Shown here one piece after another: positions 1 to 8,412 of a stretch of DNA of 64,000 nucleotides; position 1 is the first letter of the stretch; the number at the start of each line of letters is the position of its first letter. The stretch covers positions 115,548-179,547 of the forward strand of contig CAWAQU010000003.1 in NCBI GenBank assembly GCA_963784355.1, given 5' to 3'. The position numbers were made by a program, and so were the translations under genes. The DNA comes from an uncultured bacterium (GTDB lineage: Bacteria; Patescibacteriota; JACMRA01). The notes under the pieces were generated by a model. The model was given only the letters and a program-made list of their open reading frames with translations. It was not told the DNA's origin and did no database searches.

Positions 1-85
1 TACCACTACCTTTTTTTAAAGCTCTACTTAAATAAGCCAGGGTTTTAGCAAAATATGAAAGTAGTATGGTTTTTAATCTCAGCAT
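1..85 (-). CDS. N-terminus of probable MurT-like Mur ligase (runs off window edge)
   Basis: ATG at 83-85; reads MLRLKTILLSYFAKTLAYLSRALKKGSG, similar to the N-terminus of MurT/DUF1727 ligases before their GxGT-LPG motif; only 28 codons visible. Confidence 0.45.
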   Translation of the reverse strand, partial: MLRLKTILLSYFAKTLAYLSRALKKGSG

Positions 86-88
86 ATT

Positions 89-730
89 TTAATTTTGTGG
101 AACAATTTGCTTGGGGCTAGGTATTTTTTCTACGATTGTTTCAAGTAATTTATCAACTCCCAATCCTGTCTTAGCGCTTACATGCAATATTTCATCTCTT
201 GGATAACCTAAAATTCTTTCAATTTCCTCACTTCTAGTTGCAATATCCGCATTTGGTAAGTCAATTTTATTTAAAACGGGGATAATAGCCAAATCCTGTT
301 CCATTGCTGAGTATAAATTTGCTAGAGTTTGAGCTTGAATACCTTGGGTAGCGTCTACTACAAGCACCGCGCCTTCACAAGCGGCCAAACTACGGGAAAC
401 TTCATAAGAAAAATCCACATGTCCGGGTGTATCTATTAAGTTTAAAACGAAGTTTTTGCTTTTCCAAGACTCGTATTTTTGGATATCTTCAGTACTCAGA
501 TCAATCATTTCATCATTTTCAGCAGTAAACTGATAATTATAATTCATTCTAACAGGCTGTAACTTTATTGTGATGCCTCTTTCTCTTTCCAAATCCATTT
601 TATCTAGGGCCTGCTCTTTCATATCACGCATAGTAACAGTGCCAGTAAGCTCCATTAATCTGTCGGCTAAAGTACTCTTCCCGTGATCAATATGGGCAAT
701 AATACAAAAATTTCTAATAAACTCAAGCAT
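89..730 (-). CDS. lepA: Elongation factor 4 (LepA), G domain only, C-terminally truncated
   Basis: [41 protein letters not shown] motifs; TAA after 213 aa where LepA is normally about 600 aa. Confidence 0.9.
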
Positions 731-783
731 GTTTGATAAATGGCTTGTAATTTAGCCCTTGTCAACTTGTCCAACTAAAGAAA

Positions 784-1716
784 TTAGCTACTCATTTTTA
801 TAACCTCTTTAATTGCCAAAAAGCCCGCATCATGATCTCCCAATTTAGGGTTTTTGTCAGGCATAATAATATAGCAATCTATTGGGGCAACATGCTTCTG
901 GATATCATCTGTTGCAAAAATCTGACCTGACTTTACTTTGGTACCGGTTTTTACGTCATCTACAATAAATTTAAAATTAATTCCCGGCTTTATAGGGGCG
1001 ATAAATTTGTAAACTTCAATTACATCTTGGTTATCTGTTTCCACAACTTCTATAATAGGCAATTTTTCCTGATCCATTAAATTAAAGTGGTTGATCGCCA
1101 TAACAACATGCTCCAAAGCTACATTTACAGTTGAACTAGCAGTATTATTACCACACTCTATTGCCAGGCTTGGTATATTTAGCTGATTTGCCACACTTAC
1201 TATTAATCCTGGAGTATGAGTTTCTTCAGTAGAGAAATGCAGTTTTATATTGGTAATTTTAGTGCTTAAATCTTTACTTTTTTCATCGGAAGCATAAATT
1301 ACAGCCTGAAAATTACCCACGCTTACGGAGTGCATATCCAGTAAAAAACTAATATCCTTGTTTTCTTTTAAGAATTTCATCACCTCTATAGCCCTTCTTT
1401 CTTCAACTGAATTGGGCAAAATATTATCAGTAAATACTCTATTCATATTGATATCAATAAATCTTAGATTCTGGGCATATGCTTCAGGATTACCTATAAT
1501 AAAAGTAATTTTACCATGTTTAAGTGCATGGTTATTTTTAGTAAAATATTTGTGAAAATCAATCATAGCCTCTACACTAGCTGGTTCACTACCGTGTAAA
1601 GCACCCACAAAAACTAGATGTGGCCCCGGCAGTCCTGAATCAATTTGAAAACTATGAGACAAGCTTGTGTTGGCATGCTGTTGGAAATATTTAATATTAC
1701 TTTCTGTGTTTGACAT
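784..1716 (-). CDS. Succinylglutamate desuccinylase/aspartoacylase family (M14) zinc amidohydrolase
   Basis: GALHGSE, NMNRVF, LDMHS, IECG motifs; ATG start taken at 1716. Confidence 0.85.
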   Translation of the reverse strand: MSNTESNIKYFQQHANTSLSHSFQIDSGLPGPHLVFVGALHGSEPASVEAMIDFHKYFTKNNHALKHGKITFIIGNPEAYAQNLRFIDINMNRVFTDNILPNSVEERRAIEVMKFLKENKDISFLLDMHSVSVGNFQAVIYASDEKSKDLSTKITNIKLHFSTEETHTPGLIVSVANQLNIPSLAIECGNNTASSTVNVALEHVVMAINHFNLMDQEKLPIIEVVETDNQDVIEVYKFIAPIKPGINFKFIVDDVKTGTKVKSGQIFATDDIQKHVAPIDCYIIMPDKNPKLGDHDAGFLAIKEVIKMSS

Positions 1717-1729
1717 AGGCTTATATAAC

Positions 1730-1753
1730 AAAAAATCCCCTTTAGGTGGGGAA
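1730..1753 (-). terminator. Intrinsic terminator (attenuator 3:4 hairpin) 5' of the M14 gene
   Basis: Minus strand TCCCC-acctaaa-GGGGA-TTTTTT, 13 nt before the ATG. Confidence 0.75.
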
Positions 1754-1787
1754 TTAAATTTAATTTTAATAATGATAATAAACTAAA

Positions 1788-1844
1788 CTATTTCCCCTTG
1801 TGTGGAGTGACCATAATAATACAAAGGAGACCAGAGTTTAACAT
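1788..1844 (-). CDS. Putative leader peptide MLNSGLLCIIMVTPHKGK
   Basis: 57-nt ORF between a consensus promoter and a terminator; contains the anti-terminator segment AAGGGGAA. Confidence 0.7.
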   Translation of the reverse strand: MLNSGLLCIIMVTPHKGK

Positions 1845-1857
1845 ACTATATACTTTA

Positions 1858-1886
1858 ATTATATTGAAAAATGCAAATTGTGTCAA
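1858..1886 (-). promoter_or_regulatory. Sigma70 promoter for leader peptide and M14 gene
   Basis: Perfect TTGACA-17 nt-TATAAT on minus strand. Confidence 0.85.
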
Positions 1887-2638
1887 GAAACCCAACTCAA
1901 CCAAGTTTGGATAATTTTTATTTGGTCTTCATCTTTTAGGTCCAATTCAGGGTGCCATTGCATCCCCAAAATTTTTTTGTTTTTTATAGAGACTGCTTCA
2001 ATTAAACCATCCGGAGCCACTGCTTCTACTTGTAAACCCTCGCCCAATTTGTCTACTCCTTGATGATGTATACTTGTCACCATGATTGTATTTTTATTTA
2101 AAACATCATATAGGATTCCATCTTTTTTTAAATCTACTGGGTGCACTTTTCCGGTTTCTACACTTTCATTATCAAAATCTCCATCTTCCTGCTTTTCTGC
2201 AGTATATTTAATGTGCTGCACTGGAGCATTTTCATCAAGGTGCTGAATTAAAGTACCGTTTTGGACTACGTTCAACATCTGGAAGCCACGACAAACAGCT
2301 AGTACAGGCAAATTCCTTTCCATTGCAGCTCTAATTAAATAGTAGTCATACCAATCTTGAAAATTTTCGCTAGTTTTATTTTCCGGTCCAGTAGTGTACA
2401 TACCTGGATCAATGTCTTTACCTCCAAGTACTATTAATCCGTCAGCCTCGCTGATATATCTGGAAATTTCATCTTTTATGGTTTCCATATCATTAATTTT
2501 TGTGTGGAAAAAAGGTACTTGTGGTAAAAAACTCTGTTCAAGTAAAAAATCGGACCATTTACTATGAATATAAATTATGGGCAAACCTTCTTTATAGGTC
2601 ATAAACCTTGGTGAAATTAGTATTTTTTTCATTTTCAT
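1883..2638 (-). CDS. Gamma-glutamyl-gamma-aminobutyrate hydrolase family (peptidase C26, class I glutamine amidotransferase fold)
   Basis: GGKDIDP, LAVCRGFQMLNV (catalytic Cys), SIHHQ, QWHPE. Confidence 0.88.
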   Translation of the reverse strand: MKMKKILISPRFMTYKEGLPIIYIHSKWSDFLLEQSFLPQVPFFHTKINDMETIKDEISRYISEADGLIVLGGKDIDPGMYTTGPENKTSENFQDWYDYYLIRAAMERNLPVLAVCRGFQMLNVVQNGTLIQHLDENAPVQHIKYTAEKQEDGDFDNESVETGKVHPVDLKKDGILYDVLNKNTIMVTSIHHQGVDKLGEGLQVEAVAPDGLIEAVSIKNKKILGMQWHPELDLKDEDQIKIIQTWLSWVS

Positions 2639-2651
2639 AAAATTTAATATT

Positions 2652-2673
2652 AAAAAATCTCCCTAAATGGGAG
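2652..2673 (-). terminator. Intrinsic terminator (attenuator 3:4 hairpin) 5' of the C26 gene
   Basis: Minus strand CTCCC-attta-GGGAG-ATTTTTT, 13 nt before the ATG. Confidence 0.75.
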
Positions 2674-2706
2674 TGATAAAAAATTGGTATAGATAATTTT
2701 GCTCCC

Positions 2707-2763
2707 TTAATTTGGATTGTCTATGTCACAAGTACAAGCTAAAAGTAACGCAAAATTTAACAT
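2707..2763 (-). CDS. Putative leader peptide MLNFALLLACTCDIDNPN
   Basis: 57-nt ORF starting 6 nt after a -10 box; anti-terminator GGGAG directly follows the TAA. Confidence 0.7.
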   Translation of the reverse strand: MLNFALLLACTCDIDNPN

Positions 2764-2769
2764 GCTTTA

Positions 2770-2798
2770 ATTATGGCAAATAATCTATTTCGTGTCAA
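2770..2798 (-). promoter_or_regulatory. Sigma70 promoter for leader peptide and C26 gene
   Basis: TTGACA-17 nt-CATAAT on minus strand. Confidence 0.8.
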
Positions 2799-2926
2799 AA
2801 TGGTATTCATTTTCTTGTGAAAAAGTTAGGAATTAGATTGAACTCACTTTATAATTGCATAAAGTAGTCCCATCCTTTGATTTAAAGCACAATTTCTAAT
2901 TTAGGTCAATAGATGCGTAGGAACAA

Positions 2927-3472
2927 TCAACTAAACTGATAGCCTTTCAATTGATTTTTATGGTTTTTAAAATCAAGATCAAACTTGCCGACCAGATCCC
3001 AAAAAGATTTAGAGTGGTTTTTTTCTTTTACATGAGCAAGTTCATGGATTGCCACATAGTCTAGTAGCTCAAGTGGCACCAAGGCCAGTCTCCAGTTTAG
3101 ACTAATCACATTTTTACCGCTACAAGAACCCCAGCGCGTATTAGCACTTGAAAGACGAAATTTAGTATAATTTAAGTCCATAACTTCTGACCAATGATCC
3201 AGTCTAGACTTAAGTAAAACTCTGGCTTTCTTTTTAACTTCAACCTCTTCGCTTTTAGCAACCCCAAGATTGGGGGCAGTATTTCGCTTTCTTTCTAAAA
3301 CTCTTTTGATAGTATTTTGTATCCAAATCTGTTTTTTTTGAATAAAATCGTGTATGAGATTTAAATTTGCTCTATTGGGTGCCCTTACTATCAATTCCGC
3401 ATCTTTGGTGATTTGCAGACTGAGAGTTTTGCGTTTTGAGTAAATGATGTTTTTGGGAGTAATAAGGCTCAT
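2927..3472 (-). CDS. YgjP/DUF45 (M48-like) metal-dependent hydrolase
   Basis: SKRKTLSL, RWGSCS, YVAIHELAH, NHSKSFW. Confidence 0.85.
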   Translation of the reverse strand: MSLITPKNIIYSKRKTLSLQITKDAELIVRAPNRANLNLIHDFIQKKQIWIQNTIKRVLERKRNTAPNLGVAKSEEVEVKKKARVLLKSRLDHWSEVMDLNYTKFRLSSANTRWGSCSGKNVISLNWRLALVPLELLDYVAIHELAHVKEKNHSKSFWDLVGKFDLDFKNHKNQLKGYQFS

Positions 3473-6400
3473 TATGATTCTTTTGATTCAAAAAACCTAG
3501 CTACATTCCAGATTTTATTTCCAAAATTGCGATATTTTTCACACATTTTGTCCGCAAGTTTTCCACCGAGTCTAAAATTACGATTTGGAATCATGTTGCT
3601 CATCATCGCCAATCTAAGACTATCTGAAGAAAATTTTTCAATCTGATCTTCCACATTTAACCCGTTACCTAGGGATTTGCTCATTTTTCGTCCATGCTCG
3701 TCTAGAACAGTTGGGTGAATAACTACATTTTGGTAAGGAGTGCTGCCTGTAAAGTATTTTGAGACCAACATCATGCGCACAATCCATTGGTAAAATATCT
3801 CTCTGGCACTAACTAAATCTTTGGTAGAGTAATATGTTTCAAAATCAGTATTTTTCTGCCCTTGCAGATGGTCTAAATATCCAAGTGTACTAAGCGGCCA
3901 CAAACAAGAACTAAACCATGTATCTAGTATTTTTGTTTCCTGCATCCAATTTCCTGGAATTTCAGGTTTTTCCGTACCGATTTGGATTTTTTCTTGGACT
4001 GCAGGATCATTTTGCCACTCATTAAAATTATAAAAAATGCGATTTGGATTTTTTTCTAAATTGTACCACACAGGGAATCGATGACCCCAAACCAGGTCTC
4101 TTGAAATACACCAGTCTTTTACACTTTCCAGATAGCTTATTGCTCTGTCTTTAAACTCTACCGGGTAAAAATTAGTTTCCTCAGCAGCTTGTAAACCGAT
4201 TTGCTGTAAATTATTGGGTTTCTCAAGCCAAATTACTACAAGACCGTTGCTTTGAATTTTGTTGTAGTATTGCTCACCAAAAAGATTTTTATAGGTTTCT
4301 TTTATATCATTTATGGTATAATTTTCTTGAATTTCGGGTACAATTTGTGTGAAATCAAGTTTTACACTTGCAGCTGAATCTAGATTCTGATATGTCTCAA
4401 CTTTTTTAATGTTAAATTTGTAAATTTTGTTGTTTACTTTATCATTTAATTCTATAATATCTCCTGATTTCATATCACCAAAGTATTTGTCTGGTTCTTC
4501 AGGATTTAAAGCCCTAGTTTCAACAGATTTTTCTCCTGATAGGATTTTATTTAAAATATCTAACTGTAGATCATTTCTAAAATTTAAAGACCAGGTTTTA
4601 GTATTGCTATCTTCACCAGTACTTTTTACTACAGGATTAGTGTAGCTCAAGAAGAACTCTTCTGAAATTAGGGGTTCAATAACCGTTTTTGATCTCTCGC
4701 AAATTACCACATTATGCTCATAATCCCAATTTATATCCAGTTCTTCACCAATTAAATCACGTAGAAATTTTATTCCTTCTTTGTATGAGTAGTTTGCTGG
4801 ATCAAAAGCTTCACTTTTTAGACTTTTGGCTACTTTTTCCCTAATTTTTGCTTCCTGTTCAATAAATTCGGTTTTTACTGGTACAAATTCTGTTTCTATA
4901 AGTTTTTTAATAACTGCTAACCTACCCTGCTCTACCGTCAACCCTTCAAACTCACCACAAGCTTCAGTAAGTTTTCCATCTCGATTTATAGGATGCTTAA
5001 ATCCAAAGCTATACCAACTTTTATTTAAAAATTCTTGATATAATTCATAATCAAATTGATCACTGGCCGGAGTGATTTTTAATATACCTGTACCAAAATC
5101 CGGATCGACTTTTTCAGAAATCAGAAGCCTAATCTTTTTTATATCCAAACTGGGTAGCTCAAAAGATATACCTAAAAGACCCGTTTTAATTGCTTCAATG
5201 GTTTCCAATGCAATTTTTTCATCAAATCCCCCATGGTCTCTTTCAAAAAGATCTAAGTTAAAGTATTCATAAAATTTACTTGGGTGCATGGCGATTCCAA
5301 TATCCCCAAAAATTGTCTCCGGCCTAACAGTTGATACTTTTACTCTGGGTAATTCAAGAGCGGATTTAATATATTTAGAAGCAAACTCATACAAAAAGGC
5401 TTTGTCCGGATTTTTATTTTGATCAAACTCCACCCCACTAAATTTATACTCAAAAGTAATAAACGGATCCACTCTATTTTCGTACTCAATTTCCCCGGCC
5501 ACATCACTCACCGCAGTTTGCAGGCCAACGGACCAATTCACCAAATAGCTCCCTTTGTAAATCAACCCATCTTCCCAGTACTTTTGAAAAGCATAATTTA
5601 TCATTTTATTAGCTCGCTCGTCTAAAGTAAACAAACTTCTTTGATAGTCCGGAGTGTCTCCCAAAATAGAACTTTGCATTTTTTGATGATCTCGCCACTC
5701 ATCCACCTTGGACCAAGCTAAATCAACCCAAAGTTCTCGGTTATTTTGTTTTAACCACTTTGGCCAAGTATTTTTTTCAATATCTTTCAATTCAGGTGCT
5801 GTTTCTAAGATTTTTTCATCAAAATCACCTTTTTTAATCAATTTATCAATCACCCCTTCCAACTGTATTCCGGCATGATCTACTCCCGGATACCATAAGG
5901 TTTTTTGAGCTTTTTGTCTGTGAATTCTGGTTAAAGTGTCCATTAAATAGTGTTGAAAAGCATGTCCTGTATGTAAGGCTCCAGTAAGATTTGGCGGGGG
6001 CATTAAAATGCTATAATTCTCGTTAGCACCTACCTCCTTATGTAAAAATTCAATTATTTTAGGACTGATTGGGTACATTTTAGTCGCATAAAAGTCATAT
6101 TTTTCCTGCTCAGATGTAAATTCATTAGTGGTGTGTCCAATTTCATCTGGTATAAAGAAAGTAGAATAAGAATTTTCAATTCCAAATATAGGCTTTTCTG
6201 TAGCAGTACCCTGTGTGATATGTTCTTCAGTTAATATTTCTCCATTTGGCAAGGCAATAGCCAGAGCCTGCACCACATACATTTTTCTGTCTTTTCCTTC
6301 AAGTTTTTCTAAGGCCTCATGAATTTTTTGCTCGGCAAATCTATCCCTATCTTCTTTAGACAATGAGTTGAAATATTCATCACTATCTCCAAACATTACT

Positions 6401-6798
6401 TTTTTACTATCCGTTCCAGGCCAATCTAAAGCTGAAAAGACAAAGCCCCTGTCTTGTGAAATTGTGGGTAAATTACTAATTTTAGCATATTCTTTAGCTT
6501 TAGTCAGGGCATCCTGTGTAAAACTCTCTCCGGTTTCTTCAACTTCAGGAAAATCAATATGTGGTAAATCATTCAAAGTCAGCAGTTCAAAATGCTTATC
6601 TAGAGCAAGTTTTTGCCAAGCTAATTTAAAAATTTTAATTTTGTGTTTGTTGGTAGTTGCAAACAGGACTTTTTTTAATGAAGTCTCTAAATTTTGATTT
6701 TTTATTTGAATTTCAGGTGAACCCACTCCATTATTTTGCCAGGTATTATAGATACTTTCTTCAAATTCTTTCGGATTATAGCTGCTAGGCAAAGACAT
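3472..6798 (-). CDS. valS: Valyl-tRNA synthetase catalytic part with inserted HAM1 and ASCH domains; anticodon-binding domain missing
   Basis: PPPNLTGALHTGH, PGVDHAGI, TVRPET, WCISRDLVWGH, DTWFSS, KMSKS; ends at RNFGNKIWNVARFFESKES. Confidence 0.92.
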   Translation of the reverse strand: MSLPSSYNPKEFEESIYNTWQNNGVGSPEIQIKNQNLETSLKKVLFATTNKHKIKIFKLAWQKLALDKHFELLTLNDLPHIDFPEVEETGESFTQDALTKAKEYAKISNLPTISQDRGFVFSALDWPGTDSKKVMFGDSDEYFNSLSKEDRDRFAEQKIHEALEKLEGKDRKMYVVQALAIALPNGEILTEEHITQGTATEKPIFGIENSYSTFFIPDEIGHTTNEFTSEQEKYDFYATKMYPISPKIIEFLHKEVGANENYSILMPPPNLTGALHTGHAFQHYLMDTLTRIHRQKAQKTLWYPGVDHAGIQLEGVIDKLIKKGDFDEKILETAPELKDIEKNTWPKWLKQNNRELWVDLAWSKVDEWRDHQKMQSSILGDTPDYQRSLFTLDERANKMINYAFQKYWEDGLIYKGSYLVNWSVGLQTAVSDVAGEIEYENRVDPFITFEYKFSGVEFDQNKNPDKAFLYEFASKYIKSALELPRVKVSTVRPETIFGDIGIAMHPSKFYEYFNLDLFERDHGGFDEKIALETIEAIKTGLLGISFELPSLDIKKIRLLISEKVDPDFGTGILKITPASDQFDYELYQEFLNKSWYSFGFKHPINRDGKLTEACGEFEGLTVEQGRLAVIKKLIETEFVPVKTEFIEQEAKIREKVAKSLKSEAFDPANYSYKEGIKFLRDLIGEELDINWDYEHNVVICERSKTVIEPLISEEFFLSYTNPVVKSTGEDSNTKTWSLNFRNDLQLDILNKILSGEKSVETRALNPEEPDKYFGDMKSGDIIELNDKVNNKIYKFNIKKVETYQNLDSAASVKLDFTQIVPEIQENYTINDIKETYKNLFGEQYYNKIQSNGLVVIWLEKPNNLQQIGLQAAEETNFYPVEFKDRAISYLESVKDWCISRDLVWGHRFPVWYNLEKNPNRIFYNFNEWQNDPAVQEKIQIGTEKPEIPGNWMQETKILDTWFSSCLWPLSTLGYLDHLQGQKNTDFETYYSTKDLVSAREIFYQWIVRMMLVSKYFTGSTPYQNVVIHPTVLDEHGRKMSKSLGNGLNVEDQIEKFSSDSLRLAMMSNMIPNRNFRLGGKLADKMCEKYRNFGNKIWNVARFFESKES

Positions 6799-6848
6799 GG
6801 ATTTATCTTTTCTAAAAAAGAAATTTTAGGCAAGTCGAGACATCATTT

Positions 6849-7277
6849 CTAACTTTGATACTCGCCATCAAGCAAACTCTGGAAATTTGAAAATAGAAAA
6901 TTTTGTGGTAATTCCTTATAATCTAGCCACCTGGCAATACAACTATCCGCTTCAAAAGCGGCAAAATCCGAATCAATTTCCATATAGTAGTTATAGCTTG
7001 TTTGTTTAAGATTATAATTATCCGGTTTAAAGACCCAGCCGTAGATACTTTTTCCCAAATAAACTTTTTTAGTGATTCTTTCTCTAGAAATCCCAGTTTC
7101 TTCCTCAAACTCGCGTATTAAAGCTTGGTCCGGACTTTCGCCCTCATCAATCCCACCGCCTATAGCTGAATACTTAAAATTTACATAAGGATTATGCAGC
7201 TCCTCAAACACCAGATATTTTTTGGTTTCAGGATTGAAAATTATCGCTTTTGAACTTTCCCTGTACTTTGTTTCCAA
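6849..7277 (-). CDS. NUDIX hydrolase (true N-terminus probably extends to about 7316)
   Basis: GGGIDEGESPDQALIREFEEETG Nudix box. Confidence 0.85.
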   Translation of the reverse strand: METKYRESSKAIIFNPETKKYLVFEELHNPYVNFKYSAIGGGIDEGESPDQALIREFEEETGISRERITKKVYLGKSIYGWVFKPDNYNLKQTSYNYYMEIDSDFAAFEADSCIARWLDYKELPQNFLFSNFQSLLDGEYQS

Positions 7278-7712
7278 ACCATCTTGAAAATGATATTCTT
7301 CTTTTAAGTAATTACTTTACATCAAAGATTTATAGTTCTTCAGTAACCAATTTCCCCATGAGCCCATTTCTGCCAAAATTTCTTGAATGCTCAACCACCG
7401 GCTAACACATTGGTCTGCTTCAAAACCTTCGATTGTACTTGAAGTTTCCAAATAGTATATTTCATGAAAATACTTGTAGTTAATCATTTTTGGTTTCATC
7501 ACAAAACCTTGTATAACTGAGCCAAGATAGTTGATTTTAGTAATTTCAGATTTTTTAATGCCGGACTCCTCTTCAAATTCCCTAAGTAGAGTTGTTTCCG
7601 CATTTTCTCCCAGGTCGGATTTGCCTCCAATAAAACTATATTTGTCCCAGGCGTAAGGATTGCCAACTTCCTCAAACACCAGATATTTTTTGGTTTCAGG
7701 ATTGAAAATTAT
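7201..7712. repeat. 44-bp identical direct repeat (7201-7244 and 7669-7712) shared by the two NUDIX genes
   Basis: tcctcaaacaccagatattttttggtttcaggattgaaaattat occurs twice. Confidence 0.9.
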
Positions 7713-7787
7713 AGCATGAGCTCCGATAACTTCCTTATACTCAGTTAAACTTGGATCAAAACTATATTCTTCATAAAGTATAGGCAT
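7317..7787 (-). CDS. NUDIX hydrolase
   Basis: GGKSDLGENAETTLLREFEEESG Nudix box. Confidence 0.87.
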   Translation of the reverse strand: MPILYEEYSFDPSLTEYKEVIGAHAIIFNPETKKYLVFEEVGNPYAWDKYSFIGGKSDLGENAETTLLREFEEESGIKKSEITKINYLGSVIQGFVMKPKMINYKYFHEIYYLETSSTIEGFEADQCVSRWLSIQEILAEMGSWGNWLLKNYKSLM

Positions 7788-7803
7788 AAAAAATAATCAT
7801 ATT

Positions 7804-8412
7804 CTACTTTTCATTTCTAAAATCATATACATACATGTGTTTTTGCAGGAAACCTTTAATGGCAATTTTTTCGGTCGGTTCAACCCCTTCAATACTAAAA
7901 GTCAGTGTGATTATAAGGCTTCCCTTAAATTTGCCCATGTTATACATTTTAGTGATCATGTTATTTAATAAGTAGCAATATATAACACTATTTTTAGGAT
8001 AATCATATTTGTATATATCCCGGCACACAAAATTTATTTTGGTTTTTCTAAACAGTTGCTTAACTCTACTGAGCAAATGTACTGATAATTCACCTTCAAT
8101 CGCAATAGCTTCTTTCCATTCAAATTTACTAGCTAAAAAGTTAGTTACATTAGCCATACCAGCGCCCGGTTCAACTAAAGAATAACTCTTGGTTTCTCCA
8201 CCTACATACCTATTTACAATGTCAATAAGAGCATCCGCCACAGGACCAATAAAAGTCGGTACATATCCCACATTGTCTTTCAAATTTGAATAAATCATGT
8301 ACTTGAGTAAAAAAGCTGTGAAAATAAGCAAAAGTACGGATATGAGTAAAATGAAAAGGCTATAAAGCAAATTTAAATTTAATACAGGTAGATGCAGTAT
8401 TGATGTAAACAT
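7804..8412 (-). CDS. Membrane-anchored class I SAM-dependent methyltransferase
   Basis: N-terminal TM helix, VGYVPT, LVEPGAG motif I, IYCYL. Confidence 0.7.
   Translation of the reverse strand: MFTSILHLPVLNLNLLYSLFILLISVLLLIFTAFLLKYMIYSNLKDNVGYVPTFIGPVADALIDIVNRYVGGETKSYSLVEPGAGMANVTNFLASKFEWKEAIAIEGELSVHLLSRVKQLFRKTKINFVCRDIYKYDYPKNSVIYCYLLNNMITKMYNMGKFKGSLIITLTFSIEGVEPTEKIAIKGFLQKHMYVYDFRNEK

Follow-up and report, generated by a model that had tools for sequence, protein, structure and literature searches.

Putative leader-peptide transcription attenuators upstream of two amidohydrolase genes and four aminoacyl-tRNA synthetase genes in a patescibacterial genome

Two adjacent hydrolase genes with similar upstream leaders

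We analyzed a 64,000-nucleotide stretch of DNA (the window; G000:C3:115548-179547) from an uncultured member of the Patescibacteriota, the genome of which (G000) is a 1.14-Mb assembly of 13 contigs with ~33% GC, and focused on two neighboring genes for putative amidohydrolases and on the short leaders that precede them. Coordinates are window positions, all features of this locus lie on the minus strand, and region 1-4200 was read directly on that strand. The upstream gene (1883..2638) encodes a peptidase C26, a class-I glutamine amidotransferase-like gamma-glutamyl hydrolase of 251 amino acids (aa) (Pfam PF07722, Peptidase_C26, 2.2e-49), with a weak NCBIfam match of the PuuD type; its nearest solved structures were PuuD-like proteins and a "probable glutamine amidotransferase." The downstream gene (784..1716) encodes an AstE/AspA-type (M14-like) deacylase of 310 aa, counted from the ATG at 1716 (Pfam PF24827, AstE_AspA_cat, 1.6e-13). 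Its NCBIfam matches, to aspartoacylase and succinylglutamate desuccinylase, were weak and both under the cut-off, and a sequence search of solved structures gave no relative.

The leader of the C26 gene (leader 2) starts at a promoter consisting of TTGACA (2798-2793), a 17-nt spacer, and CATAAT (2775-2770), which scored 11/12 and has a TG preceding the −10 box (2770..2798). An open reading frame (ORF) of 18 codons plus TAA (2709-2707), MLNFALLLACTCDIDNPN, lies at 2707..2763, and with its ATG (2763) only 6 nt past the −10 box the mRNA would be leaderless. Segment 1 of this leader, AATTTTGC...CTTTTAG (codons 3 to 9; 2739..2757), was paired in the ribosome-free minimum free energy (MFE) fold with segment 2, TTAAGGGAGCAAAATT (2695..2710), which overlaps the stop codon and of which GGGAG (2706-2702) is complementary to the terminator 5′ arm. 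The terminator (2652..2673) consists of CTCCC (2673-2669), the loop ATTTA, GGGAG (2663-2659), an A, and six T's (2657-2652), with a hairpin of −6.9 kcal/mol; 13 nt separate the T-run from the C26 ATG (2638).

The leader of the M14-like gene (leader 1) has a promoter scoring 12/12 (1858..1886), in which TTGACA (1886-1881) overlaps the C26 stop codon TGA (1885-1883) and is followed after 17 nt by TATAAT (1863-1858). Its ORF, MLNSGLLCIIMVTPHKGK, again has 18 codons, ends with TAG (1790-1788), and spans 1788..1844, with the ATG (1844) 13 nt past the −10 box. Segment 1, GGTCTCCTTTGT (codons 5 to 8; 1821..1832), has segment 2 (ACAAGGGG) as a possible partner; in the MFE fold without a ribosome, it pairs with the terminator 3′ arm instead. 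Segment 2, ACAAGGGGAA (codons 15 to 18; 1792..1801), is the antiterminator partner of the terminator 5′ arm TTCCCC. The terminator itself (1730..1752) is formed by TCCCC (1752-1748), the loop ACCTAAA, GGGGA (1740-1736), and six T's (1735-1730), with a hairpin of −8.1 kcal/mol, and its T-run ends exactly 13 nt before the M14 ATG (1716).

Both leaders, each ~110 nt long, thus carry a G-rich segment at the end of the ORF and, ahead of the enzyme gene, a 5-bp GC-rich stem with six T's that has the form of an intrinsic terminator. A reading of this DNA made earlier from the letters alone (the sequence-only reading) had described a twin arrangement of promoter, 18-codon ORF, and terminator ending 13 nt before the ATG, and direct inspection showed every one of these elements to be present; the pairings that it had drawn within each leader were likewise recovered by folding. 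The two promoters were the top 2 of 33 promoter-like sites in a consensus scan of window positions 1-8000. The sequence-only reading had also remarked on the shared MLN start and the length of 18 codons: both features occur in both peptides, whereas neither is rare among the 1,125 intergenic short ORFs of 10 to 30 codons in the same genome (11/1,125 and 63/1,125, respectively). The pattern ML...LL was found in four of these ORFs, two of which are the pair under study.

With distances of 127 and 253 nt between hairpin and preceding gene end, and with the promoters located between the upstream stop codon and the hairpin, the hairpins were ruled out as terminators of the preceding genes. No T-box and no other curated riboswitch or leader family matched at its gathering score in Rfam 15: a scan of window positions 1500-3100 with E-values up to 10 returned eight matches, none credible (best E-value, 0.66), and top scores were far under gathering (22.6 bits versus 70, and 19.2 versus 55 for Phe_leader).

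Translation starts in this genome

Shine-Dalgarno (SD) enrichment was not observed at any spacing in the 30-nt regions upstream of the 990 genes of a crude ORF call, which rules out the GGGAG and GGGGA motifs of the leaders as SD sequences. Sites scoring at least 11/12 as promoters numbered 110 genome-wide (88 outside genes), and many strong promoters ended 6 to 10 nt ahead of the ATG of a long gene. An ATG 4 to 16 nt past the −10 box of an intergenic promoter was present in 113 cases. Since 58 of these 113 ATGs opened ORFs of at least 80 aa, the leader ATGs, 13 and 6 nt past their −10 boxes, are placed where real genes start. Leaderless or near-leaderless mRNAs appear, from these sequence patterns, to be routine in this organism. 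Translation of both 18-codon leader ORFs is therefore plausible, given the lack of an SD signal and the many leaderless-type promoters throughout the genome.

Predicted effect of ribosome position on leader folding

The leaders were folded with a ribosome footprint made unpairable, covering positions −15 to +13 nt of the A-site codon or, alternatively, with everything upstream masked. Two read-outs were used: a kinetic one, scoring whether the terminator 5′ arm was paired upstream in a transcript ending just past that arm, and the presence or absence of the terminator in the full-length minimum-energy structure. In leader 1, the antiterminator (AAGGGGAA with TTCCCC) was formed with A-site codons 2 to 12 and lost from codon 13 on, the point from which the terminator first appeared in the full-length fold; the ribosome-free fold had the antiterminator, corresponding to a read-through state. 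For leader 2, A-site codons 2 to 15 allowed the antiterminator (GGGAG with CTCCC) and codons 16 to 18 and the stop codon blocked it, and without a ribosome segment 1 paired with segment 2 and the terminator formed. In both leaders the masked folds place the terminator 5′ arm in the antiterminator, making the two structures mutually exclusive. Masked folding, which the sequence-only reading had proposed as a check with segment 1 as the masked part, thus gave a position-dependent switch in both leaders. Of its scheme of four mutually exclusive segments with a shared logic, the pairings and the dependence on ribosome position were recovered, whereas the ribosome-free default states proved to differ between the leaders.

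Switch-like geometry, meaning that the antiterminator forms while the ribosome is early in the ORF but not once it has reached the stop codon, was found in 1.7% and 2.7% of 300 shuffles each of leaders 1 and 2, respectively, and in 1.3 to 9.7% of 300 shuffles per leader across the leaders tested. The hairpins of the two hydrolase leaders resemble the ordinary short terminators of this genome. Among 44 ordinary terminators at gene ends that were matched in stop-to-hairpin spacing, however, switch-like geometry was seen in none, versus 6 of 8 G000 leaders, and any antiterminator-like pairing was seen in one.

Related leaders upstream of aminoacyl-tRNA synthetase genes

The promoter and short-ORF layout of the two hydrolase leaders is shared by leaders upstream of four synthetase genes of G000, identified through Pfam and NCBIfam as threonine-, lysine-, proline-, and serine-tRNA ligases. 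The ORFs ahead of them encode six Thr in a row for thrS (MNSLQTTTTTTNPLKG; upstream of L008), five Lys for lysS (MKLVVFSKKNSKKTSQ; L010), Pro-Pro for proS (MKYSNLNSVNFPPR; L007), and a single Ser for serS (MFQVHFITSIIL; L009). In every member of the family, the ORF stop has a G-rich stretch (GGGAG, GGGG, or GGGGG) only a few nt away and is separated by 27 to 43 nt of AT-rich sequence from a hairpin of the (C)TCCC-loop-GGGAG type with a T-run. Against the background of the 1,125 intergenic short ORFs, the cognate residue was enriched in the thrS leader (Thr, 6/15; P = 4.7e-5) and the lysS leader (Lys, 5/15; P = 6.9e-3), marginally in that of proS (Pro, 2/13; P = 0.07), and not in that of serS (Ser, 1/11; P = 0.6), with a combined P of 1.6e-5 over the four leaders by Fisher's method. 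A run of at least four Thr occurred in 1 of the 1,125 ORFs. In the thrS leaders of G000 and of two related genomes, G022 and G014, and in the lysS leader, the cognate run ends at most 1 codon from the last stall position that leaves the G-rich segment free, and in the folding model this placement of the end of the run at the switch boundary is a consistent design rule. The thrS, lysS, and proS leaders can serve as an internal calibration of that boundary. The hydrolase leaders would be directly testable against it, because cognate runs end at the point beyond which a stalled ribosome no longer leaves the antiterminator exposed.

Leaders 1 and 2 aligned with a score of 31.5, versus 3.9 ± 4.6 for shuffles (0/500 reached it); for their cores, from ATG to hairpin, z was 3.1, and several other pairs of G000 leaders gave z values of 2 to 4. 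This pattern fits one cassette having spread within this lineage, because the leaders align mutually and those of lysS, proS, serS, and both hydrolase genes are absent from relatives.

The synthetase genes bearing a leader (thrS, proS, serS, and lysS) are all class II, and 0 of 6 class I genes examined had one. The argS gene was not found in the census of G000 synthetase genes. Two further candidate leader ORFs were noted on contig C12, both on the minus strand: MFFATFIFSLILPDNTGA, with four Phe, ahead of genes for an unknown protein of 145 aa and an ABC exporter (L013; G000:C12:107800-110250), and MQFKSIFINLWLLMFSELGSVWI, with two Trp, ahead of the gene for a 633-aa protein that matched nothing in Pfam or NCBIfam (L012; G000:C12:111000-113500). 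A less clear attenuator-like leader lies ahead of the gene for a 422-aa unknown protein on the plus strand of contig C7 (L011; G000:C7:37100-39800).

thrS leaders in other genomes of the candidate phyla radiation

In a sample of 26 genomes of the family, 23 of which had a thrS match, Thr-run leaders of the same layout were found in three genomes besides G000, namely G016 (MPNNHVTTTTAIPIQTGVALVV; the family loci are L018, L020, and L030), G022 (MQIFVTTTTTAQIRE), and G014 (seven consecutive Thr). A wider scan, with an alignment of the N termini of threonyl-tRNA synthetase (ThrRS) as the query, yielded 80 loci, mostly labeled as belonging to the candidate phyla radiation (CPR): Patescibacteria group, Saccharibacteria, Parcubacteria, SR1, Peregrinibacteria/Peribacteria, and Paceibacterota. 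These lineage labels of the nearest thrS loci fit the assignment of the present DNA to the CPR, which had been made from the sequence alone. An upstream short frame with a run of at least four Thr was present at 10 of the 80 loci (L137, L138, L141, L146, L147, L169, L181, L186, L190, and L197), with runs of 4 to 9 Thr; two of the ten peptides are not independent, because they are identical to ones from the family genomes. At L138 and L147 the Thr leader lies about 570 to 640 nt upstream, with another ORF intervening.

Five of the ten (L169, L181, L186, L190, and L197) were Peribacteria-type loci of 56 to 59% GC with MSQRTTTTTTTTSR-like peptides, at which GAGGAAGG directly follows the TGA stop codon and is complementary to the hairpin 5′ arm CCTTCCTC. 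The layout in which the antiterminator abuts the stop codon therefore recurs in a distant CPR group, at a very different base composition, and this predicted layout supports the reality of the mechanism class in the CPR more strongly than any other finding. The sequence-only reading had placed the hydrolase leaders in the attenuator class with mutually exclusive pairings, an assignment that gained support both from the same architecture ahead of four synthetase genes and from the Thr-run leaders of other CPR genomes. The wider family of thrS leaders is at least as interesting as the hydrolase leaders themselves.

Conservation of the hydrolase leaders

Homologues of the C26 protein were found in 14 of 401 genomes of a phylum sample. 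Scans of genome and metagenome contigs with the single protein returned no close C26 relative, and a metagenome scan that used an alignment as the query returned 80 C26 loci, none with more than 40% identity. The best metagenomic match, L215 (33% identity; 34% GC), has a leader of its own: TTGACA, a 17-nt spacer, and TATACT are followed 16 nt on by the ATG of a 19-codon ORF, MFFSNCVCCSTSKSVSRVQ, which ends in AGGGTGC, and a GCTCCCT/GGGGGT hairpin with a T-run lies 16 nt before the C26 ATG. In the fold model this leader showed position-dependent pairing like that of leaders 1 and 2. Finds of the M14-like gene were confined to the same family (10 of 23 genomes), and the neighbor of the C26 homologue in the related genome G002 is not an M14 homologue. 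All homologues compared for leader conservation were at most 40% identical. A comparable short ORF with its pairings in homologous leaders, named as a check with the sequence-only reading, was seen for C26 at L215 and not at the other C26 loci or at the 11 loci of M14 homologues.

Candidate sensed residues

Leucine had been put forward as the residue likely to be sensed. Its frequency in the two peptides pooled (7/34; P = 0.16) did not support this, nor did that of Cys (3/34; P = 0.07) or Asn (4/34; P = 0.13) reach significance, and the only other C26 leader found, that of L215, encodes three Cys and no Leu; on these compositions, we did not retain Leu as the sensed residue. The peptides of the two hydrolase leaders hold 1 and 2 nonadjacent Cys. 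When the two C26 leaders (leader 2 and L215) were pooled, Cys was enriched (5/35; P = 0.003) and Leu was not (4/35; P = 0.7). Counted from the sequences, the distance from the last Cys codon to the G-rich segment was 23 to 26 nt in L215, leader 2, and leader 1, which falls inside the 13- to 32-nt range of the Thr and Lys runs. Cysteine is the best lead for the C26 leader, a suggestion for which L215 is the single additional locus. In the case of leader 1, the candidate residues lie in the stretch Leu-Leu-Cys-Ile-Ile-Met-Val just before the switch boundary.

Proposed mechanism and alternative explanations

We consider it probable that each of the two hydrolase genes has a ribosome-mediated (leader-peptide) transcription attenuator of its own, which controls it. 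Transcription would begin at the strong sigma-70-type promoter, and with the 5′ end of the transcript at the AUG or a few bases before it, a 70S ribosome could translate the 18-codon leader at once. The G-rich segment (GGGAG or AAGGGGAA), which lies at the leader stop codon or adjoins it, is complementary to the terminator 5′ arm. An unhindered ribosome at the last codons or the stop codon would cover this segment, so that the 5-bp hairpin and the U-run would form and transcription would end 13 nt before the enzyme start codon. A ribosome stalled upstream for lack of a charged tRNA would leave the segment free to pair with the terminator 5′ arm as it emerges, and with this antiterminator formed RNA polymerase would read through into the hydrolase gene. 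In leader 2 the switch would have to be kinetic, because at equilibrium the terminator always beats the 5-bp antiterminator. We infer that the ORFs are translated and that the hairpins terminate transcription, and infer the stalling signal likewise. Ribosome-mediated attenuation is the best reading, because masked folding gives a switch, the sister leaders carry the cognate residues, and 0 of 44 ordinary terminators match; for the two hydrolase leaders, the support is largely by analogy with the sister leaders.

A number of observations weigh against attenuation by a translating ribosome. The fold energies of the whole leaders were unremarkable compared with those of shuffles (z = −1.32 and −0.80), and the terminator hairpins, with 5 bp and −8.1 and −6.9 kcal/mol, are weak; the antiterminator of leader 2 is a 5-bp helix closing a 28-nt loop, and the terminator always won in full-length MFE folds. 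Neither peptide was significantly enriched in any residue, and neither has a single-residue run as in the thrS leader. Among the sister leaders, that of serS holds a single Ser without enrichment and that of proS was not switch-like in the folding model. Such a leader was also lacking at eleven further synthetase genes of G000 (valS, which lies in the window, two PF00133 genes, a metS-like gene, a class IIb gene, an aspS-like gene, cysS, gltX, tyrS/trpS, alaS, and pheS). Comparison with relatives adds to this: the same-genus genome G001 had no thrS leader, and among 25, 22, and 25 family loci of lysS, proS, and serS, respectively (G000 included), leaders were found only in G000. The C26 homologues of the two nearest genomes, G013 and G002, had no such leader, 0 of 12 further C26 loci in the phylum sample had a hairpin and T-run upstream, a terminator near the start was found at 1 of 77 metagenome C26 loci with enough upstream sequence (L215), and 0 of 11 loci of M14 homologues had a hairpin and T-run within 260 nt upstream.

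The mixed composition of the two peptides, without any run, would suit two other explanations. In one of these, the attenuators are ribosome operated and read overall translation capacity, such as ribosome supply, general starvation, or inhibitors, and not a single amino acid. In the model a stall anywhere at codons 2 to 12 or 2 to 15 gives the antiterminator, and the ribosome-free state of leader 1 is already one of read-through, both of which speak for this explanation. The sister leaders, however, are clearly residue specific (Thr6 and Lys5), and the L215 leader has three Cys at a similar position, the last of them 23 to 26 nt before the G-rich segment; we regard the explanation as unlikely. 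In the other, the leaders are structured RNAs sensed by a small molecule, an RNA-binding protein, or a tRNA, and the 18-codon ORFs are incidental. Short ORFs are indeed common in the AT-rich intergenic DNA (1,125 of 10 to 30 codons), the peptides lack a run of cognate residues, and across the family no sequence elements except the G-rich segment and the hairpin recur strongly. Rfam, however, gave no family (best E-value, 0.66), the leaders have little stable structure beyond the switch in their ~110 nt, the sister ORFs encode the cognate residue of the downstream synthetase, and the ORF stop always abuts the antiterminator segment, an arrangement for which a switch operated by a ligand or protein would have no need. 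This makes non-ribosomal sensing improbable as well.

Still less probable, in our view, is that promoter, short ORF, and terminator together constitute an independent gene for a micropeptide or small RNA, with the hydrolases expressed through leaky read-through or from unrecognized promoters. On paper the units are complete transcription units, and their hairpins are like the ordinary short terminators of the genome. Yet a promoter would not fit into the 13 nt between the T-run and the enzyme ATG, the peptides show no conservation, and the complementarity of the antiterminator at the stop codon is missing from the 44 ordinary terminators; we hold this explanation to be very unlikely.

Relation to known attenuators

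Leader-peptide attenuation is a textbook mechanism, with its classical cases in the trp, thr, his, leu, and ilv operons of Proteobacteria. As in those systems, a short ORF that would be translated precedes an intrinsic terminator ahead of the structural gene, the antiterminator shares the terminator 5′ arm, and the position of the ribosome would select the structure. The leaders described here differ in that the ORF lacks an SD sequence and opens at the 5′ end or close to it, in that the layout is very compact, with 5-bp arms and an antiterminator segment abutting the stop codon, and in that the targets are amidohydrolase genes and not biosynthetic operons; the peptides of the hydrolase leaders also lack a run of regulatory codons.

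The sequence-only reading knew of no description of such a system, which overstated its novelty: candidate attenuators of trpS and leuS have already been predicted in Streptomyces (Seliverstov et al. 2005, PMC1262725), and a pheST attenuator in gamma-proteobacteria is noted in the same report. The Streptomyces candidates resemble the G000 leaders of thrS, lysS, proS, and serS in having a leader peptide, an antiterminator, and a terminator before synthetase genes, and differ, as described there, in belonging to high-GC Actinobacteria, in concerning other synthetases, and in having no hydrolase targets. Leaderless leader peptides have likewise been predicted, 14 in number, in Deinococcus deserti, for which attenuation was proposed (de Groot et al. 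2014, PMC4007540). There, too, a 5′-terminal AUG opens a short peptide rich in one residue, and transcription attenuation is the proposed mode; unlike here, the phylum is a different one and the downstream genes of that account carry SD sequences. In mycobacteria, leaderless polycysteine short ORFs act as Cys-responsive translational attenuators (Canestrari et al. 2020, bioRxiv 10.1101/834739). These are similar in that leaderless short ORFs are involved and stalling at starved codons opens an RNA structure, and in that several loci answer to one amino acid (a "ribulon" in the terms of that report), Cys being a candidate signal here too. They are dissimilar in that the report describes sequestration of the ribosome-binding site and poly-Cys tracts, in place of a hairpin with a U-run and 1 to 3 scattered Cys. 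With 1 and 2 nonadjacent Cys, no SD signal, and a terminator downstream, the leaders of the two hydrolase genes do not belong to the mycobacterial polycysteine class. Exchange of attenuators between sensing systems, and their ability to move between genes, have also been described (PMC2965389).

Our literature search found no account of leader-peptide attenuation in Patescibacteria/CPR and none of a Thr-codon leader of thrS; one paper that mentions both Patescibacteria and leader peptides uses the latter term in the context of bacteriocin processing. The mechanism is of a known kind; new are the CPR lineage, the compact leaderless layout, and the hydrolase targets.

To our knowledge, almost nothing is known of gene regulation in the CPR. 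These bacteria cannot be grown alone and have few recognizable regulators. A switch operated by the ribosome needs no regulator protein and would suit their reduced genomes. A wider scenario, which we offer tentatively and which must be considered rather doubtful as a whole, is that the CPR use compact leaderless attenuators for general amino-acid sensing. The thrS version (4 to 9 Thr, ten leaders) is present in at least two distant CPR groups, and the cassette would have spread in the present lineage to lysS, proS, serS, and the genes of two scavenging amidohydrolases. C26, and perhaps the AstE/AspA-type deacylase, might then be induced by cysteine starvation and release Cys from compounds of the gamma-glutamyl or N-acyl type, such as glutathione-like peptides, obtained from a host or the environment, forming a Cys "ribulon" that serves salvage and not synthesis. 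If the hydrolases do answer to starvation for one amino acid, this would name the class of their physiological substrates, and attenuation would be shown to control salvage enzymes and not biosynthesis. For the annotation of CPR genomes, a 5′-end AUG, 12 to 22 codons, and an antiterminator abutting the stop codon make up a simple search pattern.

Additional observations on synthetase and neighboring genes

The ThrRS frame of G000 (L008; G000:C3:~61500-64466, minus strand; leader locus G000:C3:62000-64800) encodes 993 aa, and an insertion of two GNAT acetyltransferase domains separates its catalytic core from the N-terminal domain; this insertion varies, since the frames of relatives span 614 to 1,141 aa. 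The lysS gene (L010; G000:C6:36000-38250, minus strand) shows a change of frame at a run of five A's ~40 codons past the ATG, reflecting either an error of assembly or a genuine frameshift, and its open frame also bears a C-terminal DUF2000 domain. Matches to alaS were split over two contigs (G000:C9:41070-41996 and G000:C13:20102-20754), and the C13 piece has in-frame stops, one TGA and one TAA. Near the start of the window, a lepA-like ORF (89-730, minus strand) encodes 213 aa with the GTP-binding domain alone and ends in TAA, downstream of which lies a different ORF of 433 aa in the same frame.

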